A stretch of 64,000 bases of DNA from a virus: the IMG/VR virus record IMGVR_UViG_3300006175_000009, positions 1-64,000 of that record. One strand, given 5' to 3'. Made by a program: the position numbers and the translations under genes. The notes beneath the pieces are model-generated. The model made no database searches and was not told the origin of the DNA. It saw only the letters and a program-made list of their open reading frames with translations. Every line of letters starts with the position of its first letter. Positions within the stretch are counted from its first letter, which is position 1. This document shows positions 11,201-53,107 of the stretch, one piece after another.

Positions 11201-11293
11201 AGGGCACCCCTTCGTTTCCCCACCGTTAAGCAGGGCATTTCGGACGATTCGACTGCGAATCCAGAGCCCTGCCTCAACGACAGGGTTGGCGCG

Positions 11294-11361
11294 TGGGACC
11301 GAGAGGAGTTGAACCTCTCTAACACCACCTGATCAGAGTGGCTTATCAACCGGGCGGTCCC
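11294..11361 (-). tRNA. tRNA-Ile(GAT)-like with no D-stem
   Basis: Acceptor GGGACCG/CGGTCCC-A, anticodon arm CCACT-CTGATCA-GGTGG, T-arm AGAGG-TTCAACT-CCTCT; only 13 nt in D region. Confidence 0.6.
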
Positions 11362-11364
11362 TCA

Positions 11365-11490
11365 AGGAAGTTGGTGTGGATTCGAACCACCGCCCGCCGT
11401 CGCGGAAGAGCCTGTCCTTATCAGTCGCTCTCAGCCTAGCCGTAGGTCAATCGGACTCGAACCGAACTACTGCGCCCTGCTCCAACTTCC
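11365..11490 (-). ncRNA. tRNA-like RNA with two T-loop hairpins
   Basis: 9-bp terminal stem GGAAGTTGG/CCAACTTCC; hairpins TCGG-TTCGAGT-CCGA and GTGG-TTCGAAT-CCAC. Confidence 0.6.
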
Positions 11491-11492
11491 AG

Positions 11493-11555
11493 TGAGGCAG
11501 AGGGAATCGAACCCTCAAGACGGGACGCGCGCGCCGTCTGCGAACCTGCTACCTC
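11493..11555 (-). ncRNA. truncated tRNA-like module
   Basis: Acceptor GAGGTAG/CTGCCTC-A, T-arm AGGG-TTCGATT-CCCT, one internal hairpin AGACGG/CCGTCT. Confidence 0.55.
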
Positions 11556-11574
11556 GGGGGCCTAGGAACCCCAG

Positions 11575-11686
11575 TGGACACCGCTGGAGTCGAACCAGCG
11601 CATTCTCAACCCTAGGACCGACTCGGCCGACGTCGGTTTGGTAACTAACCATCCTAGAGCGTGGGTTGAAAATCATCCCCGTGCCC
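11575..11686 (-). ncRNA. tRNA-like (Ala-identity) RNA with long branched core
   Basis: GGGCAC/GTGTCC-A (G3.U70, A73), T-arm GCTGG-TTCGACT-CCAGC, long stem TTTTCAACCC/GGGTTGAGAA enclosing a three-way junction. Confidence 0.6.
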
Positions 11687-11689
11687 AAG

Positions 11690-11746
11690 TGGGTTCCTCA
11701 GGAGTCGAACCTGAGCGCTTACCTTAGTTGCCCAGTCTCGGAACCC
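11690..11746 (-). ncRNA. tRNA minihelix-like module
   Basis: Perfect GGGTTCC/GGAACCC-A acceptor and TCAGG-TTCGACT-CCTGA T-arm joined by only 25 nt. Confidence 0.6.
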
Positions 11747-11748
11747 AA

Positions 11749-11970
11749 CTCCGCGTCAACGCTCGGCAAAGCGGAGCGGAGAAGACCAAGCGGTTCCTTG
11801 ACTGGGAGGAGGTCACCCCCATGCCCAGGGGCAGGTAAGCCTTCCTCGAACCCATGGTCGGGCAACCCCGTGGAGAACCCGACACCAACAGCTTAGAACC
11901 TAGGTCGGACAAGTCCTTCCCTGGGATGGGCCTTAGCCCCCTGCGACGGACTCCCGGTCCCTTGCTGCTG
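11749..11970 (-). ncRNA. Ms1-like structured RNA (~220 nt)
   Basis: No credible ORF; directly downstream of a strong promoter; ordered blocks GGCTAAGGCCC, GAAGG, CCGACC, CCACGGGG, CGCTTGGT resemble recalled Ms1/MTS2823 blocks; 3' hairpin CTCCGC..GCGGAG. Confidence 0.5.
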
Positions 11971-11975
11971 AAGCA

Positions 11976-15005: not shown

Positions 15006-17738
15006 CTAGCTGCCCGTAGCCTTTGACAGGATCAGGTCAGTGTAGCGACTCGGGATGGCGCGGTACTTCACGCTCAGGTCCCTGGTGACCGTGTTGCCCT
15101 GGCCGTCGTCCATCTCGACAGACTTGGCCTTGACGGGCGCTCGCTGCTCTGCGTTGACCCCACGTAGCTCGGTGTCGATACCAGCGGCGTCAGTGAGTGA
15201 TCGAGTGCGGTAGTCCTGGCGTCCCACCTGTGACCAAATGTCGGCCAGCTTGGGGACGTTGACCCTGAACTCTCCGTCGCGCTCGTTCCTGTAGACCGCC
15301 ATGACCAGACCGTGCTCACCGGGGCGAGTCGGGAACCCAAGGTGACGCCAGACGGTCGGGATGACCTCCAGGATGACGCTGGAAGCGTTCCCCAGATCCT
15401 CCTGAGAGCTGATCCACTCGTCTACCAGGCCGACCCACTTGGAGTCGCCTGTGAGGCTCTCCAGAACCCGCGCACCGGCCTTCAGGTAGCCGTAGGACTG
15501 ACCGACACGAGACGACCCGTCAACATCTCCGATGGCCTTGCTGTGGCACAGGATCGAAGCCACGAGGCTTCCGGCGATCTTGGTGAAGTCGTTGTTGAAG
15601 CGGGCCTTGAGGGGCTTGACGTCAACCTCGTACTGGTTCTTGCCAGGGTGGCGGAGCGACATGCGGTCCACGATCGTTGGCATGTCCAGCTTGATCAGTC
15701 GGTCACGGTTGGCCTTCTGGGAGTTGAAGTTGGTTGTCATGCCCTCGGACGAGATGATCGTAGCAGCGCGGAACTTGCCACCAGCGCGCTTGCTCGCGTT
15801 GGCCACGCTCATCTTGTTCTTGGCACCCTTGGTGATCGCCAGGCGGATCAACTGCTGTAGCTCTTCGTTGATGTGTACATCGTCAAACCAGACCACGCCG
15901 TTGTTGTTGGCCGTGTAGGCGTTCTCCGCAGACGCACGAGTCCAGGCACCACCTGAAGTGTCTACCCCGATCATCTGGAGTCCGGACTTGGTGTAGCTGG
16001 TCTTGCCCGACTCCGCAAGGCCCTCGATCTGGAGAGCGGGGAACATCTCTCCCTCGGTGAACTGGCCACGCAGGACGACCATGACGAGCCAGGAGCCCAG
16101 AACGGCAGCCACCTTCTCGTCGTGCCAGGTCAACCACTCCTTGAAGATGCTTACGGCCTCTTCGCACGACACTTCGAACCCGTAGGCGGACTTCGAGTTC
16201 TCCGTAGCGTACTCGGATGGCAGGCAGTCAGCGAAAGGTGCCAGTGCTGCTCGGCCAGGCTTGATCACACCTTCGTTGGTGATGAAGGCGTTGAAGATCT
16301 GGTTCCAGCCGGTGAAGCCGATCTCGGAGAGTTCAGGCAGGTCGAAGCTGTCCAGGAACATGGTGACCTGGTCCGCTGTCACGAACTGACCGTTCGCCTG
16401 GTTCGGAGGGTAGGTTGCCCCACCGAAGGCGCGCATCCACTTCTTGAACTCCCTCTCACCGATCAGCTCTTCGGAAGAGATCATCCGCTCGCCGATCAGC
16501 TCGCCAGAGCCCTTGAAGACGTTGACACGCCAGGCGCGACGGTCGGTGCTCATGATCACACGGGTAGGCACCAGGCTGAAGTTGGCCACAGGCGCGTACG
16601 CCACGGTCTTCTTCCCAGACTTGTCCTCCTGCATGAACCGAACGGTGAACTCGTCGTCCTGGATGCCCAGGAAGCCAGTGCGCTTGGTGAACTGCTCCGC
16701 GTTCGCAGGGATGGCCGGGTTCTCGGGCTTGTTGAAGATCGGGTTGCCTTCACGTTCACGCTTCTTGGCAACCTCCTTCGCCCAGAACCGCTGAAGCTGG
16801 CCCGTAACTATCTCGTCTGTCTGCGGCCTGCGGGAAGCACGCTCATAGTTCAGGACAAAGGCGAGAGCAGCCTCATAAGGAAGTCCGGCCTTGACGAACA
16901 TCTGGGCAACGCCACCAGCAACGGCAGTGCTGTTGTCGTTTCCTCGACCGGAAGCACCAGGAGAGGCGAGAGCCTTGACGTACCAGGGAGTTGAGGGATC
17001 GACTTCGTCCGGAATGTGGACCGAACCAGGCATGTCCTCGGGGAGAATCTCAAGATCGTCATTCTCCTTGACCTTGGGCAGGTTCTGAAGGTGGTCAACC
17101 CATGCCTGAGGAAGTTCCGGCAGTTCATCGACTCGCGGAACGCCTTCACTGACCTGACCGACTGGACCGTACCAGCGGTACTGGCGAACCTCTCCCGTGG
17201 TTTCGTTGACTACCTCGGAAGGCCAGGCGACCGCGTACCGATAGTTGTGCTGTACGAAGTCGATGAAACCCGTCTTGGAAGGCCACAGAAGCCCGCTGGG
17301 AACACGAAAGAACCGAATCCCTGACGGGTTGGCGAACCCGCGTGAGGTAGAGCGCCAGGTGGCGGGAAGGGCTCCGAGCTGCTCTTCGAGTTCCGCAAGC
17401 TGGTCTGCTCCATCCTTCTCGACACCCTTCTTCTCGTAGTGATCCACGTCGATGCCGATGACGTTCTCAGGCATGCGCAGAGCTACGTTGTTGTTGCTGT
17501 TGTGCGCCCACACGTGGATCTGGTGATCGGTCGGGTAGATCCCGGTGTTGACCATGCCAGTGAACCCCGAAGGAGGGGTCATCTTCTTCATGTGAGGCAG
17601 AGGAAGAACGCCACGCCACCCGAACTCGGTGTAGAGGTTGACGCTGCTGGCGTACGGACCCTTGCCCATGTCTGCGGAGAGCTGGCACCCGTCCTTAGTG
17701 CACGGAGCCTTAGTGGCTGTGTCGATCATCCTTGTCAA
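15006..17738 (-). CDS. bifunctional primase-polymerase (Prim-Pol) fused to a P-loop helicase-like domain
   Basis: GWRGVLPL..KK.PP.GF, NVALR, IGIDVD, STSRG; C-terminal EGLAESGKTS Walker A and WFDD Walker B. Confidence 0.8.
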   Translation of the reverse strand: MTRMIDTATKAPCTKDGCQLSADMGKGPYASSVNLYTEFGWRGVLPLPHMKKMTPPSGFTGMVNTGIYPTDHQIHVWAHNSNNNVALRMPENVIGIDVDHYEKKGVEKDGADQLAELEEQLGALPATWRSTSRGFANPSGIRFFRVPSGLLWPSKTGFIDFVQHNYRYAVAWPSEVVNETTGEVRQYRWYGPVGQVSEGVPRVDELPELPQAWVDHLQNLPKVKENDDLEILPEDMPGSVHIPDEVDPSTPWYVKALASPGASGRGNDNSTAVAGGVAQMFVKAGLPYEAALAFVLNYERASRRPQTDEIVTGQLQRFWAKEVAKKREREGNPIFNKPENPAIPANAEQFTKRTGFLGIQDDEFTVRFMQEDKSGKKTVAYAPVANFSLVPTRVIMSTDRRAWRVNVFKGSGELIGERMISSEELIGEREFKKWMRAFGGATYPPNQANGQFVTADQVTMFLDSFDLPELSEIGFTGWNQIFNAFITNEGVIKPGRAALAPFADCLPSEYATENSKSAYGFEVSCEEAVSIFKEWLTWHDEKVAAVLGSWLVMVVLRGQFTEGEMFPALQIEGLAESGKTSYTKSGLQMIGVDTSGGAWTRASAENAYTANNNGVVWFDDVHINEELQQLIRLAITKGAKNKMSVANASKRAGGKFRAATIISSEGMTTNFNSQKANRDRLIKLDMPTIVDRMSLRHPGKNQYEVDVKPLKARFNNDFTKIAGSLVASILCHSKAIGDVDGSSRVGQSYGYLKAGARVLESLTGDSKWVGLVDEWISSQEDLGNASSVILEVIPTVWRHLGFPTRPGEHGLVMAVYRNERDGEFRVNVPKLADIWSQVGRQDYRTRSLTDAAGIDTELRGVNAEQRAPVKAKSVEMDDGQGNTVTRDLSVKYRAIPSRYTDLILSKATGS

Positions 17739-17782
17739 CCATTCTGCTTTGAGACCTTGATTCTAACGGTTGGCAATGACTC

Positions 17783-18007
17783 TCAGGCAGCCTCTTCCAC
17801 GTCCACAACAGTGAGAAGGTCGATGGGGTTGCAGCCAAGCATGTCGGCGATCTTGTTGATCGTAGGCAGTGTGGGGATTCGCTCGCCACGCTCGAAGTAG
17901 GTGGCCGTTCCGTTGGAACCAAGGATGCCTGACACGTTGGCCCGTGTCATTCCACGGCGCTCCCGAATGGCCTTCATGGCCTCACCGTTAAACTTCAGTT
18001 CCTGCAT
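17783..18007 (-). CDS. XRE-family HTH regulator
   Basis: IRERRGMTR..V...L......ERGERIP......IADMLGC. Confidence 0.85.
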   Translation of the reverse strand: MQELKFNGEAMKAIRERRGMTRANVSGILGSNGTATYFERGERIPTLPTINKIADMLGCNPIDLLTVVDVEEAA

Positions 18008-18128
18008 CTCGTATGTCCTTTCGCGTGTCCTTGCGAGACACAGTTAAGCACATACGTAGGAGTCCAGTCAAGTGTGCTCTTTGGGCAAAAAGAAGGCCCT
18101 CCCAGGACGAGGATACCAGGAGGGCCGG

Positions 18129-18203
18129 TCGCTCAGGTTGGTCTCGAACCAACGCATCTCCCCGTTATGAGCGGGGTGCCTTAACCAGCTTGGCCACTGA
18201 GCG
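18129..18203 (-). tRNA. tRNA-Met(CAT) (elongator-type; Ile2 not excluded)
   Basis: Canonical cloverleaf CGCTCAG/CTGAGCG, anticodon loop CT-CAT-AA. Confidence 0.85.
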
Positions 18204-18208
18204 AAGAG

Positions 18209-18287
18209 AGCGAACAGACGGAGTCGAACCGTGATCCACCTGGGTTGCAGCCAGGCCCCAGTTGCCCACTGAGTTAGGACTATCCGC
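18209..18287 (-). tRNA. tRNA-Cys(GCA), 8/4 acceptor/T-stem fold
   Basis: GCGGATAG/CTGTTCGC-U73, anticodon arm CCTGG-CTGCAAC-CCAGG, T-stem ACGG/CCGT. Confidence 0.65.
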
Positions 18288-18333
18288 AGAGCTGGGGAAG
18301 GCGGCTCGCCAGCCGTGCGTCCCTTACCCCAAC

Positions 18334-18413
18334 GTGGAGAATCTGGGAGTCGAACCCAGCTCCTGGAGCTTCCCTCGTGGGGCTTTGACTCCAGTCGAAA
18401 CCAACTATTCCCC
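18334..18413 (-). ncRNA. mini-tmRNA: tRNA-like domain only, no tag ORF
   Basis: GGGGAAT-AGTTGG-TTTCGAC start, G3.U70/A73 acceptor, short P2 CTGGAG/CTCCAG, GA-G-CTGGG-TTCGACT-CCCAG. Confidence 0.75.
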
Positions 18414-18472
18414 ATACCAGACACCTCTCGGGAAATCTCAAGGAGGTGGGCTTTTACTGTCTGATTGCCGCG

Positions 18473-18545
18473 AGCCCCCGACAGGATTCGAACCTGCGTC
18501 ACCGACTTACAAGGACGGTGCTAAACCAGCCTCAGCTACAGGGGC
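18473..18545 (-). tRNA. tRNA-Thr(TGT)
   Basis: Canonical cloverleaf, loop CT-TGT-AA. Confidence 0.85.
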
Positions 18546-18678
18546 AGCATGCCAGTTTGTTTTGTCAAGCGAAGCTGACACTCTCCGCCTTGGAAGACAC
18601 GACCTGACCTACACCCGCGTTAGCGGTTAACAGGTAGTAATTGTAGCCGCAGATCATTACGACTTCATAGCGTGCCCG

Positions 18679-18746
18679 TGGACCCACGGAGAATCGAACT
18701 CCGCTGGAGTGCCTTGCAAAGGCTCCCTGTCACCTTGACCAGGCCC
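18679..18746 (-). tRNA. tRNA-Ala(TGC) with shortened D-arm
   Basis: G3.U70, A73, loop TT-TGC-AA, D hairpin GTCA-AGG-TGAC. Confidence 0.65.
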
Positions 18747-18818
18747 AAAAAGCATCATAACCGGAACAGCTTGTCCACCGGTAGTGCCTCCCCATGAATC
18801 GAGGTCTTTGATGCTACG

Positions 18819-18901
18819 TACCGAAGGTGGGACTCGAACCCACAATCCCGAAGGCACTAGTTCCTAAGACTAGCGTGTATATCCAGTTCCACCACTCCGG
18901 C
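18819..18901 (-). tRNA. tRNA-Leu(TAG)
   Basis: Canonical class II cloverleaf, CTAGT-CTTAGGA-ACTAG, variable arm. Confidence 0.9.
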
Positions 18902-18917
18902 ATGTTCAGTTGTTGCG

Positions 18918-19012
18918 TGATCCGAGCAGGAATCGAACCTGCGTTACCCAGCCATCCTAAGCCTCAAGCCTAGGCATCAATCCGGGCGGCTTTCCATTTA
19001 GCCTATCAGACC
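18918..19012 (-). tRNA. tRNA-like RNA with extended anticodon arm
   Basis: Normal acceptor, D and T arms; anticodon stem CCCGG/CTGGG encloses an extra hairpin CCTAGGC-TTGAG-GCTTAGG. Confidence 0.6.
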
Positions 19013-19015
19013 AAG

Positions 19016-19084
19016 GGAGACGCAGACGCGGGGGGAGGATCTACGTCTCCACTAGAACCAGGTGGGGGGGCCCTGTGTTCGTGG
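19016..19084 (-). ncRNA. 6C RNA-like
   Basis: Two adjacent hairpins with loops GCCCCCCCA and TCCTCCCCCCGCG, starting at the predicted TSS. Confidence 0.75.
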
Positions 19085-19088
19085 TACT

Positions 19089-19119
19089 AGCTTAGCACAG
19101 TCCATAGCCCCCTCGTCAA
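19089..19119 (-). promoter_or_regulatory. promoter of RNA operon 2
   Basis: TTGACG-N19-TAAGCT. Confidence 0.65.
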
Positions 19120-19126
19120 GCCAGAA

Positions 19127-20074
19127 TCAGTGTCGAGTGAAGTTTTGTGCGAAGCCCAGCTCAGCGAGGTTGCTCAGCTCCTCCTGGTCCCCGTACTTCC
19201 GGCCTCGAAGGCAAGCCTCGGTGAAGGAGCACATGTACTTGCAGGTGTCTTCCTTCGGAGTGCGCTCGTGCCGGTTGTCGAGTCCGTAAGCCTTCAGGAC
19301 GGTCGCTGTGGCCTCGCGTGCGATGGTGTCCAGCTCGGAGGGCATCCGGTCCATGTAAGTGCGGGAGAAGCGCTCTTCGGGGGACTGCATCTTTGGCCGG
19401 ACGCCAGCTCGTTCGCCAGCTTCCTTTCGAACTTCCCAGCGCTCGATCTCGCCAGGAATGTCGCCCTTGTTCATCTTGGTCTTGACGGCATTATGAACAG
19501 CCATGAAAGACGGGTTGCCCAGTTCCCGTAGGGCCCACAGGTAAAGGCTGAACTGGTCGCTCAGGGCGTAGTCCTGCTCCTTCGGAAGAGTGGAACAGGT
19601 CTTATGGTCAAGTACGAGAAGGCGGTTCTTCTCATCGCGGACGATCAGGTCGATGGAGCCCTTGAGGATGATCTCCCGCTGTCCTTCGAAAAGGGTCGGG
19701 AGGGGGACTCGGAACTTGTGTTCGACGGCTCGGATGTTCCAGAGGGAATCTCCGTAGTAGCGCTCGTGATAGCCTTCGAACATCCAACGGACAATAGCCA
19801 CAGCCTCCTCATCCGAGTCCGACTGTACTGGTACTGAGTCGAGTACATGATGAGCTGCCTTCACGCATTCCGCGAGAGGCTTTCCCTCCATTCGACCCAG
19901 ATAGTACTGCTCGACAACGGCATGGAAAAGGGTGCCCTTGCCCAGAGCTGTGTTCAGGTTGTTCTTCTTGGACCACCGCATCTTGTACTCAAGCATGTGC
20001 TTGTGAGGGCACGTGCGGTAGCTGTTGATCTCGGACCACGAGACAACTAGGGGCTCTGGGTTAGGGCTGGACAT
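19127..20074 (-). CDS. Cas4-like / RecB-family PD-(D/E)XK exonuclease
   Basis: SWSEI..Y..CP, GTLFH, GSIDL, DHKT, Q...Y; C-terminal CKYMC....AC (Fe-S-type Cys arrangement). Confidence 0.85.
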   Translation of the reverse strand: MSSPNPEPLVVSWSEINSYRTCPHKHMLEYKMRWSKKNNLNTALGKGTLFHAVVEQYYLGRMEGKPLAECVKAAHHVLDSVPVQSDSDEEAVAIVRWMFEGYHERYYGDSLWNIRAVEHKFRVPLPTLFEGQREIILKGSIDLIVRDEKNRLLVLDHKTCSTLPKEQDYALSDQFSLYLWALRELGNPSFMAVHNAVKTKMNKGDIPGEIERWEVRKEAGERAGVRPKMQSPEERFSRTYMDRMPSELDTIAREATATVLKAYGLDNRHERTPKEDTCKYMCSFTEACLRGRKYGDQEELSNLAELGFAQNFTRH

Positions 20075-49123: not shown

Positions 49124-52100
49124 CTAGTTTCCTCCGCCTGCACCGGAAGGAGCCTGGTGGACAAGCCCTGAGGCATCCTGACCGGTCATGTTTCCGTAGC
49201 GGACCTGGCAGAACGTACGCGAATTCTCCAGACCGAGCGTCTGTGTAGCCAGGGTTACACAACGGCCAATGTCGCCAGTGGTTCCCCACTTGATCTGGGC
49301 GGCACCAGCTCCGGTCTCGAAGAAGTCGATCAGAGTCGGGTCCTGCATCATGATCGACTCGTCAACAACGCCCTGCTGGGAGACGTGCTGCTCAGGAGCT
49401 GGGGCAACTGTCGGTGTGGCAGCAGGAGCCGACTGTCCTCCACCTAGCTGCTCGTGGATTGCCATGCCCATGCCCTTGTCGGCCTTGATGGCATCCCACT
49501 CATCGCACACGTCTTCAGCCTTGATCAGGCCCTCGACCAGAGTGCAGGAACCCGAAGGCAGGAACATGCTGCACGTTCCACAGCGCTTGTTCGGGTTGTC
49601 CGACTCACGGTAGTCAACGGACTCCTTGGAGACCTTCTGACCCTTCTCCGCGTCCGGTCGTGCAACCGTAGCAGAACCAGACTGCTTGCCATCCTTGGCG
49701 AACTGGTAACTGTGCGTCTGCTCCCAGCGATCGTCGTCTTCTGGAACGAATCCCAGGTAAGTGACGAACGGGCGACCAAGCTTCTTGTAGGCAAGCACGC
49801 GGTGGTGCCCGTCCACAATCTTGATTCGGCTGTCACCTTCGGTCTGACGGATGCTGATTCCAGGCTTGAGTTCCTTGCCCTTCTTCAGCTTCTTGGCCAT
49901 CTCCGCCACGGACTCAGGTTCGTTCGCAGCAGCCCAGTTGTCCGCGTCATCAAAGTCGATGCGCTCCAGTGGAACTTCCACCGGTCCGACCCAGCGAGCA
50001 TCCTTGACCCACTTGAGACCCTTGTCATCGAAGTCTCCGCGCATCATGTTCAGCACGTGAGTCTCAGCAACAGGGTTCGGGTCGTCAAGATCCTTGGCAC
50101 CCTTGCCAACTGCATCTCCGGAGACATGCATGTCGTTGACGTCATGAGGCTGAAGCTCGTAGCCTCCGTGCGTGTAGTCTCCAGGACGCCAGTCCCCGAT
50201 GAGATCCTTCCAGAACACCTGACCAGCAGAATCCACGAGGCGCTGCTGACGGACCATCTCCACAGCCTGGTCAACCTCTGCACCCTTGGCCATGTACTCG
50301 TTGATCCGAGCAAGCACATCACTGCTCAGGTGGCGTGGTTCCCAGTCGGAGACCTGACGCCCCTTCTTGACGTGGCGAGCCATCGACTCCAGCTCGGAGA
50401 GAATCGCTCGTGTCTTGCTGGCGAACACCCGAGCCACATCGGCATCGCTGACGTCCTGCGCCTTGACCGACTGCGGTGGAAGCTTTCCGGAAGCGCGTAC
50501 GCGGCCGTTGATCAGCTCCGCAACGCGGTCCTTCATGTCTCCACGGGACAGCTCGGTCATGCCACGGTCCTCGTGAGGCTTTGTGGCAGTGTCCTTCCGC
50601 TTTGCCTCCGAGTACTCAAGAGAGCAGTTGCAACGCGGCCCACCCTCACAGATATCCCCGAAAGCGCCGTCACCCGGGTATCCCGGTAGCTCGCTCAGGG
50701 AGAAGGTCTGACCATCGCGGTCGATGCACAGAGCGCAGTTCTCGCCAGAGCCCAGGTGCCAAGTGGCTTCCCACTCACCCCCGCTTGCCCTGACAGCATC
50801 ACCATACGCCTTGTTGTACGCGAACTGCAAGCTCTGCGCATAAATGCCGATGCGACCCTTGAGCTTCTTGTCAGGCTTGGCGATGGCCGTCTGGATCAGA
50901 CCGTCCAGCCACTGACGCTGACCCTCAGCCAGCTTCCACTCCTGCTCGTGACCTGCGCTGTTTCCAGTGTAGTCCAGCTCAAGATCGTCGGTGGCGTCGT
51001 CTACGGCCTTGGACATGACGTCCTTGTAGCCCGCCGTGAGGAACGTGACCCCAAGGTGCACAGCCTTGTTGCGGTCGATCTTGCCATCCCGAACAGACTC
51101 TACAAGCTGCTCAAGCTGGTCGCCGACCTTCTCTGTGAACTTGTCGATCCGCTTGGTGCGGCGGTCCTGGAACTTGTTCCCACCCTTGACGATCTCAGGC
51201 TCTTCGCCCTTGGCCATCGGAAGCGGAACCTCTGGGGTGTCAGCACCGGCAGTGGCAGCGTGATGACCTGGAGTCATCTCAGGCTCGCCAGCCGGAACCT
51301 CAACACCACCGGCAGGAGAAGCCAGATCGGGGGTCGAAGGCTCAGCGGGATCACCCGGAACAGGCTCGCCTGAGTCTGCCGAAGCACCGGCCCCAGAAGG
51401 ACCGCCAGGGCCTGTTGCAGGCATACCGTCCGGGCTGACGAAGACAGAGCCTTCCTGGGCACCTGTACGGGCCGCAGCGATGGCCTCTGTGAGCGGAGTC
51501 CAGCCAGTAGCGGTCGCCCAACCTGGGTCGCTGGTCTCAGGCAGGCCCCAAGGCTGAAGGTCAAGCTCCTCGCGAGCCTCGTCAATCGAGCGGAGAGCGG
51601 AGCCAACCTGGTCAATCAGGATCTGAGTCTTGATCTGCTCGTCTTCGCCCTCTTCCAGACCCTCGAACATGAAGCGCATGTCCGACTGGCCGCAGACCTC
51701 CTGAATGATCACATTCATAATGTCGGCGACGAAGGAGAGGAAAGGCTTGGTGGCCTTGCGCTCGTGAATGTTCTGGCTCGACTTGCTCATCTGGTTGGCT
51801 GCGCCAGGCGAAACGGTGGTCGAGACCTTCGGCATGATGCCCAGCTCCATTGGCTGAACGTCAAATGCCATGCAGACCTGGTTCATCACGATCTCATCGA
51901 ACTGGTCCGCAAGCTGGCCCTGCTTCTGCGGCATGACCTTCGAGTCGGCAGGCAGAACGATGATCTTGTGCTTCCATGCCGGGTCACCAGCAATCGCGTT
52001 CAGGGCGTCCTGAAGCTCGCGAATCTGGTTCGGGGTCATGTTCGCATTCGCACCACCAGGAGAGATGTAGACGGCCGGAACCGTTCCCTCACGGTAGTAG

Positions 52101-53107
52101 TCAAGCTGGAAGCCCTGCTTCTGGAGACCGGCCATGACCGGAATCAGAGCGCGCTCAACTGGCGGGAATCCATAAGGAGTCCAACGACGTGCCACCATCG
52201 GCAGGTACAGAAGCTGACCAGCGTGGAACTGGCTCACCTCGGAGCCATTCAGTCGGCCGTCGTCCAGATCCCTTTCGGTGATCAGGGACATGAGATCAAC
52301 GCGAGGAACTCCGTACAGATACTGCTGGTAAGCGGGCGCTGGTGGACGTGGGCGCTCACCGTGCATGCCGAATAGCGGCCTGATGGTCGGGCCGGAGATC
52401 AGCGAAAGAGAGTCAAGGTCGGACCCAAGAAGCCCATGCCCATGACCACGAGCCCACTTGGGCCGGATAAGCAGAGACAGCGCATCGAAGACGAAGACCT
52501 CTTCGGAAAGCGCGTCCAGGAAAGAGGCCCAGTTGAAGAAGTCCGGGTCGGGACGCTTGAAGAACTTGACGACCTCCGCCCTGCGAGAACCGAAGCTCTT
52601 GGCCAGGGACGGGCTTCCTCGCATGGCCTTGGAGGCGTCACGGGTCGGCAGAATGTCCCACTCGACACCACGGACCTCGTTCTTGCGGAGTTGAATGCAG
52701 GCACGTGCGACCGAATACAGATCGGCCAGAGTCTTGAGAGTGGAGAAGTCGGCGAGCTTTACGCCCTCAGAGCCAGGCTGGCCTACCGGAAGGTTCCAAC
52801 CTACCTGGTATTCCTGGAGACGTGGCTCGGAAAAGCCACTGTCCTGTGAGGGAACATCGACCGGAACCGGAAGAATCGGGTTCTGCGGACCGAATGAACC
52901 ATCGGAGAAGATGGACGGATCACGAGGAAGGACTAGGCTGCCACTTCCGTATGCGTGACCCCAGCTCATGGTGTCCATGCTGTTGGCCATGGCGGCTGCG
53001 CCATTACCCCAAGCGCCACCCGAAACAGGAGCCCCGCCCATGCCAGACATTCCACCTGGAGATGGAAATGCCTTGTTGGCTGCGAGGATTGACTTGCGAC
53101 TTGCCAC
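49124..53107 (-). CDS. portal protein fused to MuF-like, ParB-like and Cys-cluster domains
   Basis: Portal: YGFPPVE, YY.EG.VP, F.V.P.ELG, IDEAR; CALC...CNC (MuF-like); IVDGHHR; CGTC..F....C.LV.G.I....C..W. Confidence 0.85.
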   Translation of the reverse strand: MASRKSILAANKAFPSPGGMSGMGGAPVSGGAWGNGAAAMANSMDTMSWGHAYGSGSLVLPRDPSIFSDGSFGPQNPILPVPVDVPSQDSGFSEPRLQEYQVGWNLPVGQPGSEGVKLADFSTLKTLADLYSVARACIQLRKNEVRGVEWDILPTRDASKAMRGSPSLAKSFGSRRAEVVKFFKRPDPDFFNWASFLDALSEEVFVFDALSLLIRPKWARGHGHGLLGSDLDSLSLISGPTIRPLFGMHGERPRPPAPAYQQYLYGVPRVDLMSLITERDLDDGRLNGSEVSQFHAGQLLYLPMVARRWTPYGFPPVERALIPVMAGLQKQGFQLDYYREGTVPAVYISPGGANANMTPNQIRELQDALNAIAGDPAWKHKIIVLPADSKVMPQKQGQLADQFDEIVMNQVCMAFDVQPMELGIMPKVSTTVSPGAANQMSKSSQNIHERKATKPFLSFVADIMNVIIQEVCGQSDMRFMFEGLEEGEDEQIKTQILIDQVGSALRSIDEAREELDLQPWGLPETSDPGWATATGWTPLTEAIAAARTGAQEGSVFVSPDGMPATGPGGPSGAGASADSGEPVPGDPAEPSTPDLASPAGGVEVPAGEPEMTPGHHAATAGADTPEVPLPMAKGEEPEIVKGGNKFQDRRTKRIDKFTEKVGDQLEQLVESVRDGKIDRNKAVHLGVTFLTAGYKDVMSKAVDDATDDLELDYTGNSAGHEQEWKLAEGQRQWLDGLIQTAIAKPDKKLKGRIGIYAQSLQFAYNKAYGDAVRASGGEWEATWHLGSGENCALCIDRDGQTFSLSELPGYPGDGAFGDICEGGPRCNCSLEYSEAKRKDTATKPHEDRGMTELSRGDMKDRVAELINGRVRASGKLPPQSVKAQDVSDADVARVFASKTRAILSELESMARHVKKGRQVSDWEPRHLSSDVLARINEYMAKGAEVDQAVEMVRQQRLVDSAGQVFWKDLIGDWRPGDYTHGGYELQPHDVNDMHVSGDAVGKGAKDLDDPNPVAETHVLNMMRGDFDDKGLKWVKDARWVGPVEVPLERIDFDDADNWAAANEPESVAEMAKKLKKGKELKPGISIRQTEGDSRIKIVDGHHRVLAYKKLGRPFVTYLGFVPEDDDRWEQTHSYQFAKDGKQSGSATVARPDAEKGQKVSKESVDYRESDNPNKRCGTCSMFLPSGSCTLVEGLIKAEDVCDEWDAIKADKGMGMAIHEQLGGGQSAPAATPTVAPAPEQHVSQQGVVDESIMMQDPTLIDFFETGAGAAQIKWGTTGDIGRCVTLATQTLGLENSRTFCQVRYGNMTGQDASGLVHQAPSGAGGGN

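Follow-up and report, generated by a model that had tools for sequence, protein, structure and literature searches.

Bacteria rely mainly on trans-translation, a drug target, for ribosome rescue and protein tagging. The D-loop region of tmRNA, with its GG and UUCGA(C) motif, is where SmpB binds. In this pathway, alanyl-tRNA synthetase (AlaRS) charges the tRNA-like domain (TLD) of tmRNA via its G3:U70 pair, and SmpB, bound to the TLD, stands in for the anticodon arm that is missing. EF-Tu brings this complex to a non-stop ribosome with an empty A site, and the peptide moves to the alanine borne by the TLD (PMC8012679). The TLD-SmpB-EF-Tu complex on a non-stop ribosome is represented by PDB 4V8Q, described in PMC8012679. 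Engineered minimal TLD RNAs bind both SmpB and EF-Tu, gain entry to stalled ribosomes and act there as acceptors of the peptide (PMC3895274, PMC8012679). Shimizu and Ueda 2006, cited in PMC3895274, is the source for peptidyl transfer to a truncated, TLD-only tmRNA on stalled ribosomes in vitro.

Natural RNAs of this reduced form have been described in two settings. The mitochondrial tmRNA of jakobids (RF02544) and the CDS-less plastid tmRNAs of Mallomonadaceae have a tRNA-like domain but no mRNA-like domain (MLD); they are organellar, lost the MLD independently, and serve as the sole tmRNA together with an organelle-targeted SmpB (PMC11915505). In phages, a "TLD only" (CDS-less) tmRNA is known from Mycobacterium phage DS6A (tmRNA Website, tmID 11587). 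This kind of RNA was reported in 2009 and 2014 and restated in 2025, and the DS6A RNA, or one similar to it, is reported to have strongly inhibited tmRNA in E. coli, perhaps by titration of SmpB (PMC4131195, PMC11915505). In the literature searched, we found no description of how broadly TLD-only tmRNAs occur among phages.

We analyzed a 64,000-nt stretch of an IMG/VR virus record (IMGVR_UViG_3300006175_000009), referred to here as the window. The full record is 78,117 bp long with a GC content of about 60% and is estimated to be 77% complete. A first-pass annotation had claimed that the window encodes an 80-nt tag-less tmRNA consisting of the tRNA-like domain only, and all the features it listed were found on the minus strand (Table 1). 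The 79-80-base gene comprises just the tRNA-like end of tmRNA that accepts alanine. The RNA starts with GGGGAAUAGUUGGUUUCGAC and ends in CUGGGUUCGACUCCCAGAUUCUCCA, which is followed by CGU (minus strand, 5' to 3'). CCA is therefore not encoded (A-CGU), with the C at window base 18334 usable as its first letter; this fits the local rule because all four canonical tRNA genes of the surrounding cluster also lack CCA.

The predicted structure can be read directly from the sequence. The acceptor stem has 7 bp including the alanine identity pair G3:U70, and the discriminator A79 (window 18335) is the equivalent of tRNA A73. The D-loop, GGUUUCGAC, has no stem and carries the tmRNA-specific GG and UUCGA(C) motif. 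A short cap closes P2a, and its CCC/GGG hairpin (3 bp, p32-34 with p40-42) is the equivalent of P2b. The capped P2 helix and the T-arm joined through a linker beginning with GA are as the first-pass annotation had described. The cap stands in for the entire mRNA-like domain and for PK1-PK4. Since just 18 nt separate the two P2a strands, neither a tag frame nor pseudoknots are possible: the resume codon, tag reading frame and stop codon are absent, and no sequence is left from which PK1-PK4 could form. The minimum-energy fold has the same layout as that read from the sequence. Its energy was ordinary in comparison with shuffled sequences (z about -1.2) and is thus uninformative, so that support for the structure comes from covariation in the family rather than from thermodynamics.

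Table 1. Features of the mini-tmRNA gene and of the surrounding tRNA cluster. Window coordinate = 18414 - p, where p is the position in the RNA.
Feature	Position in window	Strand	Basis or remark
Mini-tmRNA (TLD-only ssrA) gene, G1 to discriminator A79	18335..18413	-	RF00023 50.5 bits; family model R1 83.4 bits (own sequence among the R1 training set)
Acceptor stem, 5' strand GGGGAAU (p1-7)	18407..18413	-	Pairs with 18336-18342; G3 = 18411
Acceptor stem, 3' strand AUUCUCC (p72-78)	18336..18342	-	U at 18338 (tRNA position 70) pairs with G3
D-loop analogue AGUUGGUUUCGA (p8-19), no D-stem	18395..18406	-	Alignment to RF00023 consensus
P2a, 5' strand CUGGAGU (p20-26)	18388..18394	-	Fold; 7 bp with p45-51
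P2a, 3' strand GCUCCAG (p45-51)	18363..18369	-	Fold and family covariation
P2 cap: internal CAAAG (p27-31), hairpin CCC-CACGA-GGG (p32-42), AA (p43-44)	18370..18387	-	Fold
GAG linker between P2a and T-arm (p52-54)	18360..18362	-	Family comparison
T-arm CUGGG-UUCGACU-CCCAG (p55-71)	18343..18359	-	RF00023 alignment and fold
Co-oriented tRNA cluster with the mini-tmRNA inside	18127..19012	-	ARAGORN, Rfam, Pfam
tRNA-Ile-like	18917-19012	-	ARAGORN "tRNA-Ile(GAU)", 96 nt
tRNA-Leu	18818-18901	-	ARAGORN/Rfam
Ala-like element	18680-18746	-	Read from sequence; missed by ARAGORN and the Rfam tRNA model
tRNA-Thr	18472-18545	-	ARAGORN/Rfam
Cys-like element	18209-18288	-	Weak tRNA-Sec match
tRNA-Met	18127-18203	-	ARAGORN/Rfam
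Terminator-like hairpin and T-run just downstream of tRNA-Met	18096..18113	-	Site scan

The identity of the element was examined by covariance model searches. The Rfam tmRNA model RF00023, run with permissive filters, matched 18332-18413 across model positions 1-374; the score was 50.5 bits, above the gathering score of 47 (E-value 2e-18 to 2e-20), and a search of the whole record agreed. In this alignment, 308 model positions corresponding to the mRNA-like domain and all pseudoknots are deleted, with 16 nt in their place, in keeping with the earlier claim that pseudoknots and tag frame are missing. What remains aligned are the features of the tRNA-like domain: the 7-bp acceptor with G3:U70 and A73, the stem-less GGnUUCGAC D-loop, P2a and the T-arm. 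Since ordinary 76-nt tRNAs score as high as about 40 bits when RF00023 is the only model run, the margin on this model is about 10 bits. Separation was wider with the family model R1, on which true members outside the training set scored 65-75 bits, compared with at most 33 bits for a 74-nt tRNA-sized control locus and the matched parts of full-length tmRNAs and at most 23 bits for the other tRNA-like elements of the window. The tRNA model RF00005 did not match the mini-tmRNA and matched only the four canonical tRNAs of the cluster. Neither the jakobid mitochondrial model RF02544 (E up to 1) nor the alpha two-piece model RF01849, the single two-piece model run, matched the element. The first-pass annotation had named an ARAGORN/Rfam search as a check, and its outcome was mixed: RF00023 was positive with permissive filters, while the default-filter Rfam run gave no match and ARAGORN called neither a tRNA nor a tmRNA at the site. 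Such genes therefore stay unannotated.

To see the element in its family, IMG/VR was searched with a pattern in which only GGGG, the GGnUUCGAC D-loop and the T-loop were specified; the stretch between D-loop and T-loop could be 20-50 nt long, and a single D-loop length was allowed. At least 119 viral contigs matched, nearly all with the same architecture, and at least 87 distinct variants from uncultured viral contigs aligned with the window element. The usual member has a P2a of 7-8 bp, an A-rich bulge of 3-5 nt, a hairpin of 3-5 bp and a GAC, GAA or GAG linker. This layout parallels P2a, bulge and P2b of the Rfam consensus, and a minority of members cap P2a directly. The linker is GAC in the majority of the family, and the GAG of the window element occurs in 8 of 66 variants. 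CCA is encoded in 34 of the 87 distinct variants listed. One subgroup (L005, L027, L033, L036, L038, L040, L046, L072, L075 and similar loci) has GGGGUGG at the 5' end against CACCUCC at the 3' end; pairing there needs one bulged 3' C (5/7 in the straight register), and all of these loci encode CCA.

Covariation supports the structure across the family. In 51 aligned members, 97.8% of pair cells were standard, compared with 67% in column shuffles and 40-54% in slid controls; 13 of 19 pairs change on both sides, and none of 500 shuffles reached the observed score. Because a member had to show at least 6 of 7 acceptor pairs to be included, the pairing of helix 1 is in part a result of this selection; pairs 5-7 of the helix covary. 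There was no such selection on P2a or on the outer pairs of the T-stem. Changes on both sides were found in 6 of the 7 P2a pairs (51 members), and the outer three pairs of the T-arm, which the search pattern did not demand, covary and are 100% paired. G12, G13 and U16-C20 of the D-loop are invariant in the family alignment but were demanded by the pattern. In contrast, U70 and A73 were not demanded, and both are invariant in all of the 87 distinct variants listed. That the G.U wobble was never swapped for G-C (87/87) argues for selection for alanylation.

The distribution of the family was also examined. The same pattern gave 13 matches in 185,579 species genomes, 8 of them true, mostly on short MAG contigs and in one Terracoccus isolate. 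All five matched bacterial genomes that were checked, three of them with a true member, keep a full-length tmRNA. The near-absence of the element from bacterial genomes, together with the hosts' own tmRNA, indicates that it is phage-specific and would act beside an intact host tmRNA. The isolate, Terracoccus sp. 273MFTsu3.1 (L141 / L149, about 929918-929998), has a TLD-only mini-tmRNA that scores 71.5 bits on R1 and lies between tRNA-Leu and tRNA-Asn/Lys genes on a 1.1-Mb scaffold; a normal 367-nt tmRNA is present as well. This locus is probably a prophage, and the cultured actinobacterium could offer a tractable system. ARAGORN made no tmRNA call at any of 60 family loci. In 40 of 60 fetched loci it found no tRNA gene besides the element itself, and in a few more the nearest was kilobases away; the mini-tmRNA is thus not a mere passenger of tRNA clusters. 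When 3,085 ORFs from within 3 kb of 133 loci were clustered all against all, no widely shared protein neighbour emerged; the largest clusters joined 7-10 closely related loci, none including the window. Searches for close relatives of the window variant itself were negative: a BLAST search of 50,697 phage records with the 96-nt region gave just T-arm-sized matches to tRNAs, the exact 20-mer of the 5' end occurred in no other IMG/VR contig, a 53-nt degenerate pattern had no match in JGI metagenomes, and no relatives of the locus were found via the neighbouring PD-(D/E)XK nuclease.

The closest described system is the RNA of phage DS6A, which we located at JN698994 28478-28560, where it is unannotated. 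Both RNAs are phage-encoded, contiguous and about 80 nt long, and they align column for column through G3:U70, A73, a stem-less D-loop, P2a, an A-rich bulge, the P2b hairpin and the T-arm; both lack a tag frame and pseudoknots. Both match the full RF00023 model with its middle deleted (43.2 bits for DS6A and 50.5 bits for the window RNA). They differ in that the DS6A D-loop, GGUGGUCGAC, is 1 nt longer and its primary sequence outside the conserved core is unlike that of the window RNA. The DS6A gene stands alone between protein genes, whereas that of the window lies within a tRNA cluster, and the phages belong to unrelated lineages (Hnatkovirus for DS6A, Hiyaavirus-like for the window phage). 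Inhibition data in E. coli exist for the DS6A RNA, while the window RNA is known from sequence alone. Full-length tmRNAs (RF00023; mycobacteriophage Bxz1 and Bacillus phage G) share with it the alanine-identity acceptor, the GGnUUCGAC D-loop, P2a, the GGAC-type junction and the T-arm. The resume codon, tag ORF, stop codon and PK1-PK4 of these tmRNAs are all missing from the window RNA, so it can neither change templates nor tag the peptide nor bring about termination. Unlike the CDS-less tmRNAs of organelles, it would act beside an intact host tmRNA, and unlike the engineered TLD fragments, which are laboratory constructs, it is a natural, evolutionarily conserved gene.

Taken together, the Rfam match, the DS6A alignment and the family covariation back the claim of a DS6A-like tRNA-like domain. 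The RNA is contiguous and unpermuted, its P2 is closed by a short cap (the type ranges from about 65 to 90 nt), it is encoded in an IMG/VR virus record whose window holds phage structural genes, and its structure is backed by covariation among members. On this evidence, the locus qualifies as a genuine phage gene of the DS6A type with acceptor stem, D-loop, T-arm and capped P2. It is a further, previously unannotated member from a new phage lineage, embedded in a tRNA cluster.

The phage itself was characterized from its genes. The window encodes a terminase, portal, tape measure and minor tail protein and an amidase/PG-binding endolysin, along with DNA polymerase I, Prim-Pol and a D5-type primase-helicase. 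The portal domain (residues about 94-685) is part of a 1,327-aa ORF (49124-53107, minus strand) with a long C-terminal extension that holds a ParB-like nuclease/partition domain (residues about 1044-1113). The DNA polymerase shares 52-53% identity with its counterparts in the Streptomyces phages Keanu, Galactica, Hiyaa and Spocter (Hiyaavirus). The full stretch is present in rhizosphere metagenomes and in one metagenome from a microbial fuel cell; soil metagenomes contain relatives. The habitat was taken from the rhizosphere and soil labels of the full holders, leaving aside soil runs with a small share; in runs X9 and X10, the uncovered parts of the stretch are uninformative. The source is an actinophage, an incomplete Hiyaavirus-like, Streptomyces-type siphovirus of rhizosphere soil. 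Its four nearest cultured relatives, Keanu, Galactica, Hiyaa and Spocter, contain no tmRNA-like gene, and the mini-tmRNA gene is therefore accessory.

The mini-tmRNA lies inside a cluster of co-oriented tRNA genes flanked by a PD-(D/E)XK nuclease gene on one side and an HTH gene on the other. Some of the neighbours are unusual. The 67-nt Ala-like element is non-canonical: it has G3.U70, a discriminator A and a normal T-arm, a D hairpin of 4 bp with a 3-nt loop, and a UUUGCAA loop with the anticodon UGC. It scores 23 bits on the mascRNA model and 23 bits on R1. As an AlaRS-type substrate, it would be the second one, next to the mini-tmRNA. The Cys-like element has a CUGCAAC anticodon loop (GCA, Cys) and an odd, oversized D-arm; its sole match is a weak one to tRNA-Sec (24.9 bits), with no ARAGORN call. 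The tRNA-Ile-like gene has 27 extra nt in the anticodon arm and a fold z-score of -3.3. They fold into an extended arm whose terminal hairpin can be given 6 pairs and a second loop of 7 nt, CUUGAGG, and the minimum-energy fold closes this hairpin further to a 3-nt loop; an intron and an elongated anticodon arm are both conceivable. A scan of 17700-19300 revealed no promoter-like site. The terminator-like site downstream of tRNA-Met is possibly, on weak grounds, the end of an RNA operon; two such sites were found versus 1.4 expected in shuffles, which is not significant. Elsewhere in the window, an ORF-free region (11290-11975, minus strand) holds at least six T-arm-like motifs (GGTTCGAnTCC with flanking stems), none recognized as a tRNA by ARAGORN or Rfam. 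This region was considered as the coding half of a tmRNA and rejected, as it gave no tmRNA signal and only weak tRNA-like matches, with R1 scores of just 18-21 bits at 11690-11746 and 11493-11555.

Conservation of the gene was examined in relatives. A 458-nt contig from a root metatranscriptome library, roughly 90% identical, spans the tRNA-Met, the Cys-like element, the mini-tmRNA and part of the tRNA-Thr. Within the 80-nt gene it has three listed changes (C27U, A30G and A44G), four at most, while the adjacent 58-nt spacer has at least 18 substitutions and 13 gapped letters. The three changes all fall in the internal loop, and U27.G44 would lengthen P2a. A DNA contig roughly 96% identical has no listed change within the gene. 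The difference between gene and spacer is fair evidence that purifying selection acts on the mini-tmRNA gene. Between the Cys-like element and the mini-tmRNA (window 18289-18333), the RNA-library relative has just TG where the window has a spacer of 45 nt, so the two genes can abut almost directly. This contig may be DNA carry-over, comes from a relative rather than the window phage, and shows neither ends nor strand. Since an RNA library can hold DNA, and contigs have no ends or strand, it is a weak hint of transcription.

We propose, with a probability of about 0.6, that the window RNA, charged with alanine, competes with the tmRNA of the host for SmpB and stalled ribosomes and would thereby prevent SsrA tagging. 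No gene for SmpB, Pth or RF-1/ArfB was found in the record (about 77% complete), and the RNA must therefore work with host factors. Past the identification of the gene, we infer every step. The RNA would be transcribed with the neighbouring tRNAs, excised by RNase P and 3' nucleases, and given its CCA by the host enzyme. Host AlaRS would charge it with alanine via G3:U70 and A73, and host SmpB and EF-Tu would bind it. It would then compete with full-length host tmRNA, both for SmpB and for the vacant A site on ribosomes that have stalled at broken mRNAs. Having no resume codon, tag frame or stop codon, it would leave nascent chains without the SsrA tag for proteolysis. The net effect would be an inhibition of host trans-translation and tagging during infection, and the captured ribosome would afterwards be either released by host Pth/ArfB or trapped. 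Of the two possible functions put forward in the first-pass annotation, SmpB titration and tag-free release, the former has published support that is heterologous, from the DS6A RNA in E. coli. Several points count against this proposal. The gene is accessory, no promoter-like site was seen, and the RNA-library contig is from a relative and may be DNA. The distance from G1 to GAC is 20 nt as opposed to 19 nt in five actinobacterial tmRNAs, so that the fit to a Streptomyces-type SmpB is putative.

That alanine identity is invariant points to a role for charging, and thus for action on the ribosome. Mao et al. reportedly saw in 2009 that inhibition occurred whether or not the RNA was chargeable, and inhibition irrespective of charging does not explain why the family conserves alanine identity so strictly. 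If charging matters, there is room for ribosome rescue without tagging. The charged RNA, with SmpB and EF-Tu, would take over the nascent chain from stalled ribosomes, and host ArfB/Pth would hydrolyse the peptidyl-RNA. Ribosomes would be recycled and truncated phage proteins would escape tagging for ClpXP or Lon, which would be an advantage where phage mRNAs are cleaved by host RNases or toxins. The strict U70 and A73 among the 87 variants listed and the conserved 7+5-bp acceptor/T stack fit an RNA that has to act charged on the ribosome rather than one that just soaks up SmpB. Nevertheless, we know of no mechanism that releases a peptidyl-TLD from a ribosome without mRNA, and the phage record has no Pth or ArfB gene. 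The peptidyl transfer to TLD-only RNA in vitro (cited in PMC3895274) and the persistence of CDS-less tmRNAs beside SmpB in jakobid mitochondria, where they are thought to be rescue aids (PMC11915505), favor such rescue. Against this, the sole experimental report on this RNA type is of inhibition rather than rescue (PMC4131195). We regard tag-free rescue as rather unlikely, if worth keeping in view.

A different target is conceivable. The RNA might occupy or mislead defence proteins that read tmRNA-like RNAs rather than act on trans-translation as such; the SmpB-like SPB domains of CoCoNuT type IV systems and RNase R/SmpB-linked nucleases are examples. CoCoNuT systems have SmpB-like OB folds that are predicted tmRNA binders (PMC11090510), and a phage anti-CRISPR uses tRNA and tmRNA fragments (PMC11662646). 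A patchy presence in related phages and the lack of conserved neighbours are typical of accessory counter-defence genes. These points are purely circumstantial, and nothing in the window ties the gene to anti-defence genes. We know of no defence system that is inhibited by a TLD RNA and consider the idea improbable. A further proposal is that the family is a widespread phage device beyond an SmpB sponge, alanine-charged and either acting on the ribosome in tag-free rescue or decoying tmRNA-reading defence proteins such as CoCoNuT SPB. As the absolute conservation of G3:U70 and A73 in the 87 variants listed is not required by the sponge model alone, we entertain this tentatively, at odds well short of even. 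Least credible of all is a functionless relic, be it a degenerate tRNA or tmRNA pseudogene, an attP remnant of integration into ssrA, or half of a two-piece tmRNA. The same phage does carry several non-canonical tRNA-like modules, and phages that integrate into ssrA carry its 3' end (PMC10865867). The window gene, however, is not an attP remnant of ssrA because its 5' and 3' halves are both present, and they are perfectly paired; no tyrosine integrase or serine recombinase was found in the record (about 77% complete). Covariation and invariant identity elements in the family, and conservation of the gene relative to its flanking spacer, also speak against decay. The two-piece case, which the first-pass annotation had named among the findings that would overturn its reading, was rejected. 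The order is 5' acceptor strand, hairpin-closed P2 and 3' acceptor strand, contiguous and unpermuted; no second tmRNA piece was found in the 78-kb record, from which 23% of the genome is missing, and RF01849 did not match.

The gain from the window alone is modest, namely one more member of the DS6A type of RNA, a phage family that has received little study. The family level is more interesting, with many dozens of variants in unrelated phages, an invariant alanine identity and near-absence from bacteria. For annotation, the lesson is that ARAGORN and default Rfam runs overlook such genes. If the proposed competition with host tmRNA holds true, a natural phage RNA that blocks or bypasses trans-translation would be a ready-made inhibitor of this pathway and may also serve as a probe of the events that follow peptidyl transfer when no template is available.
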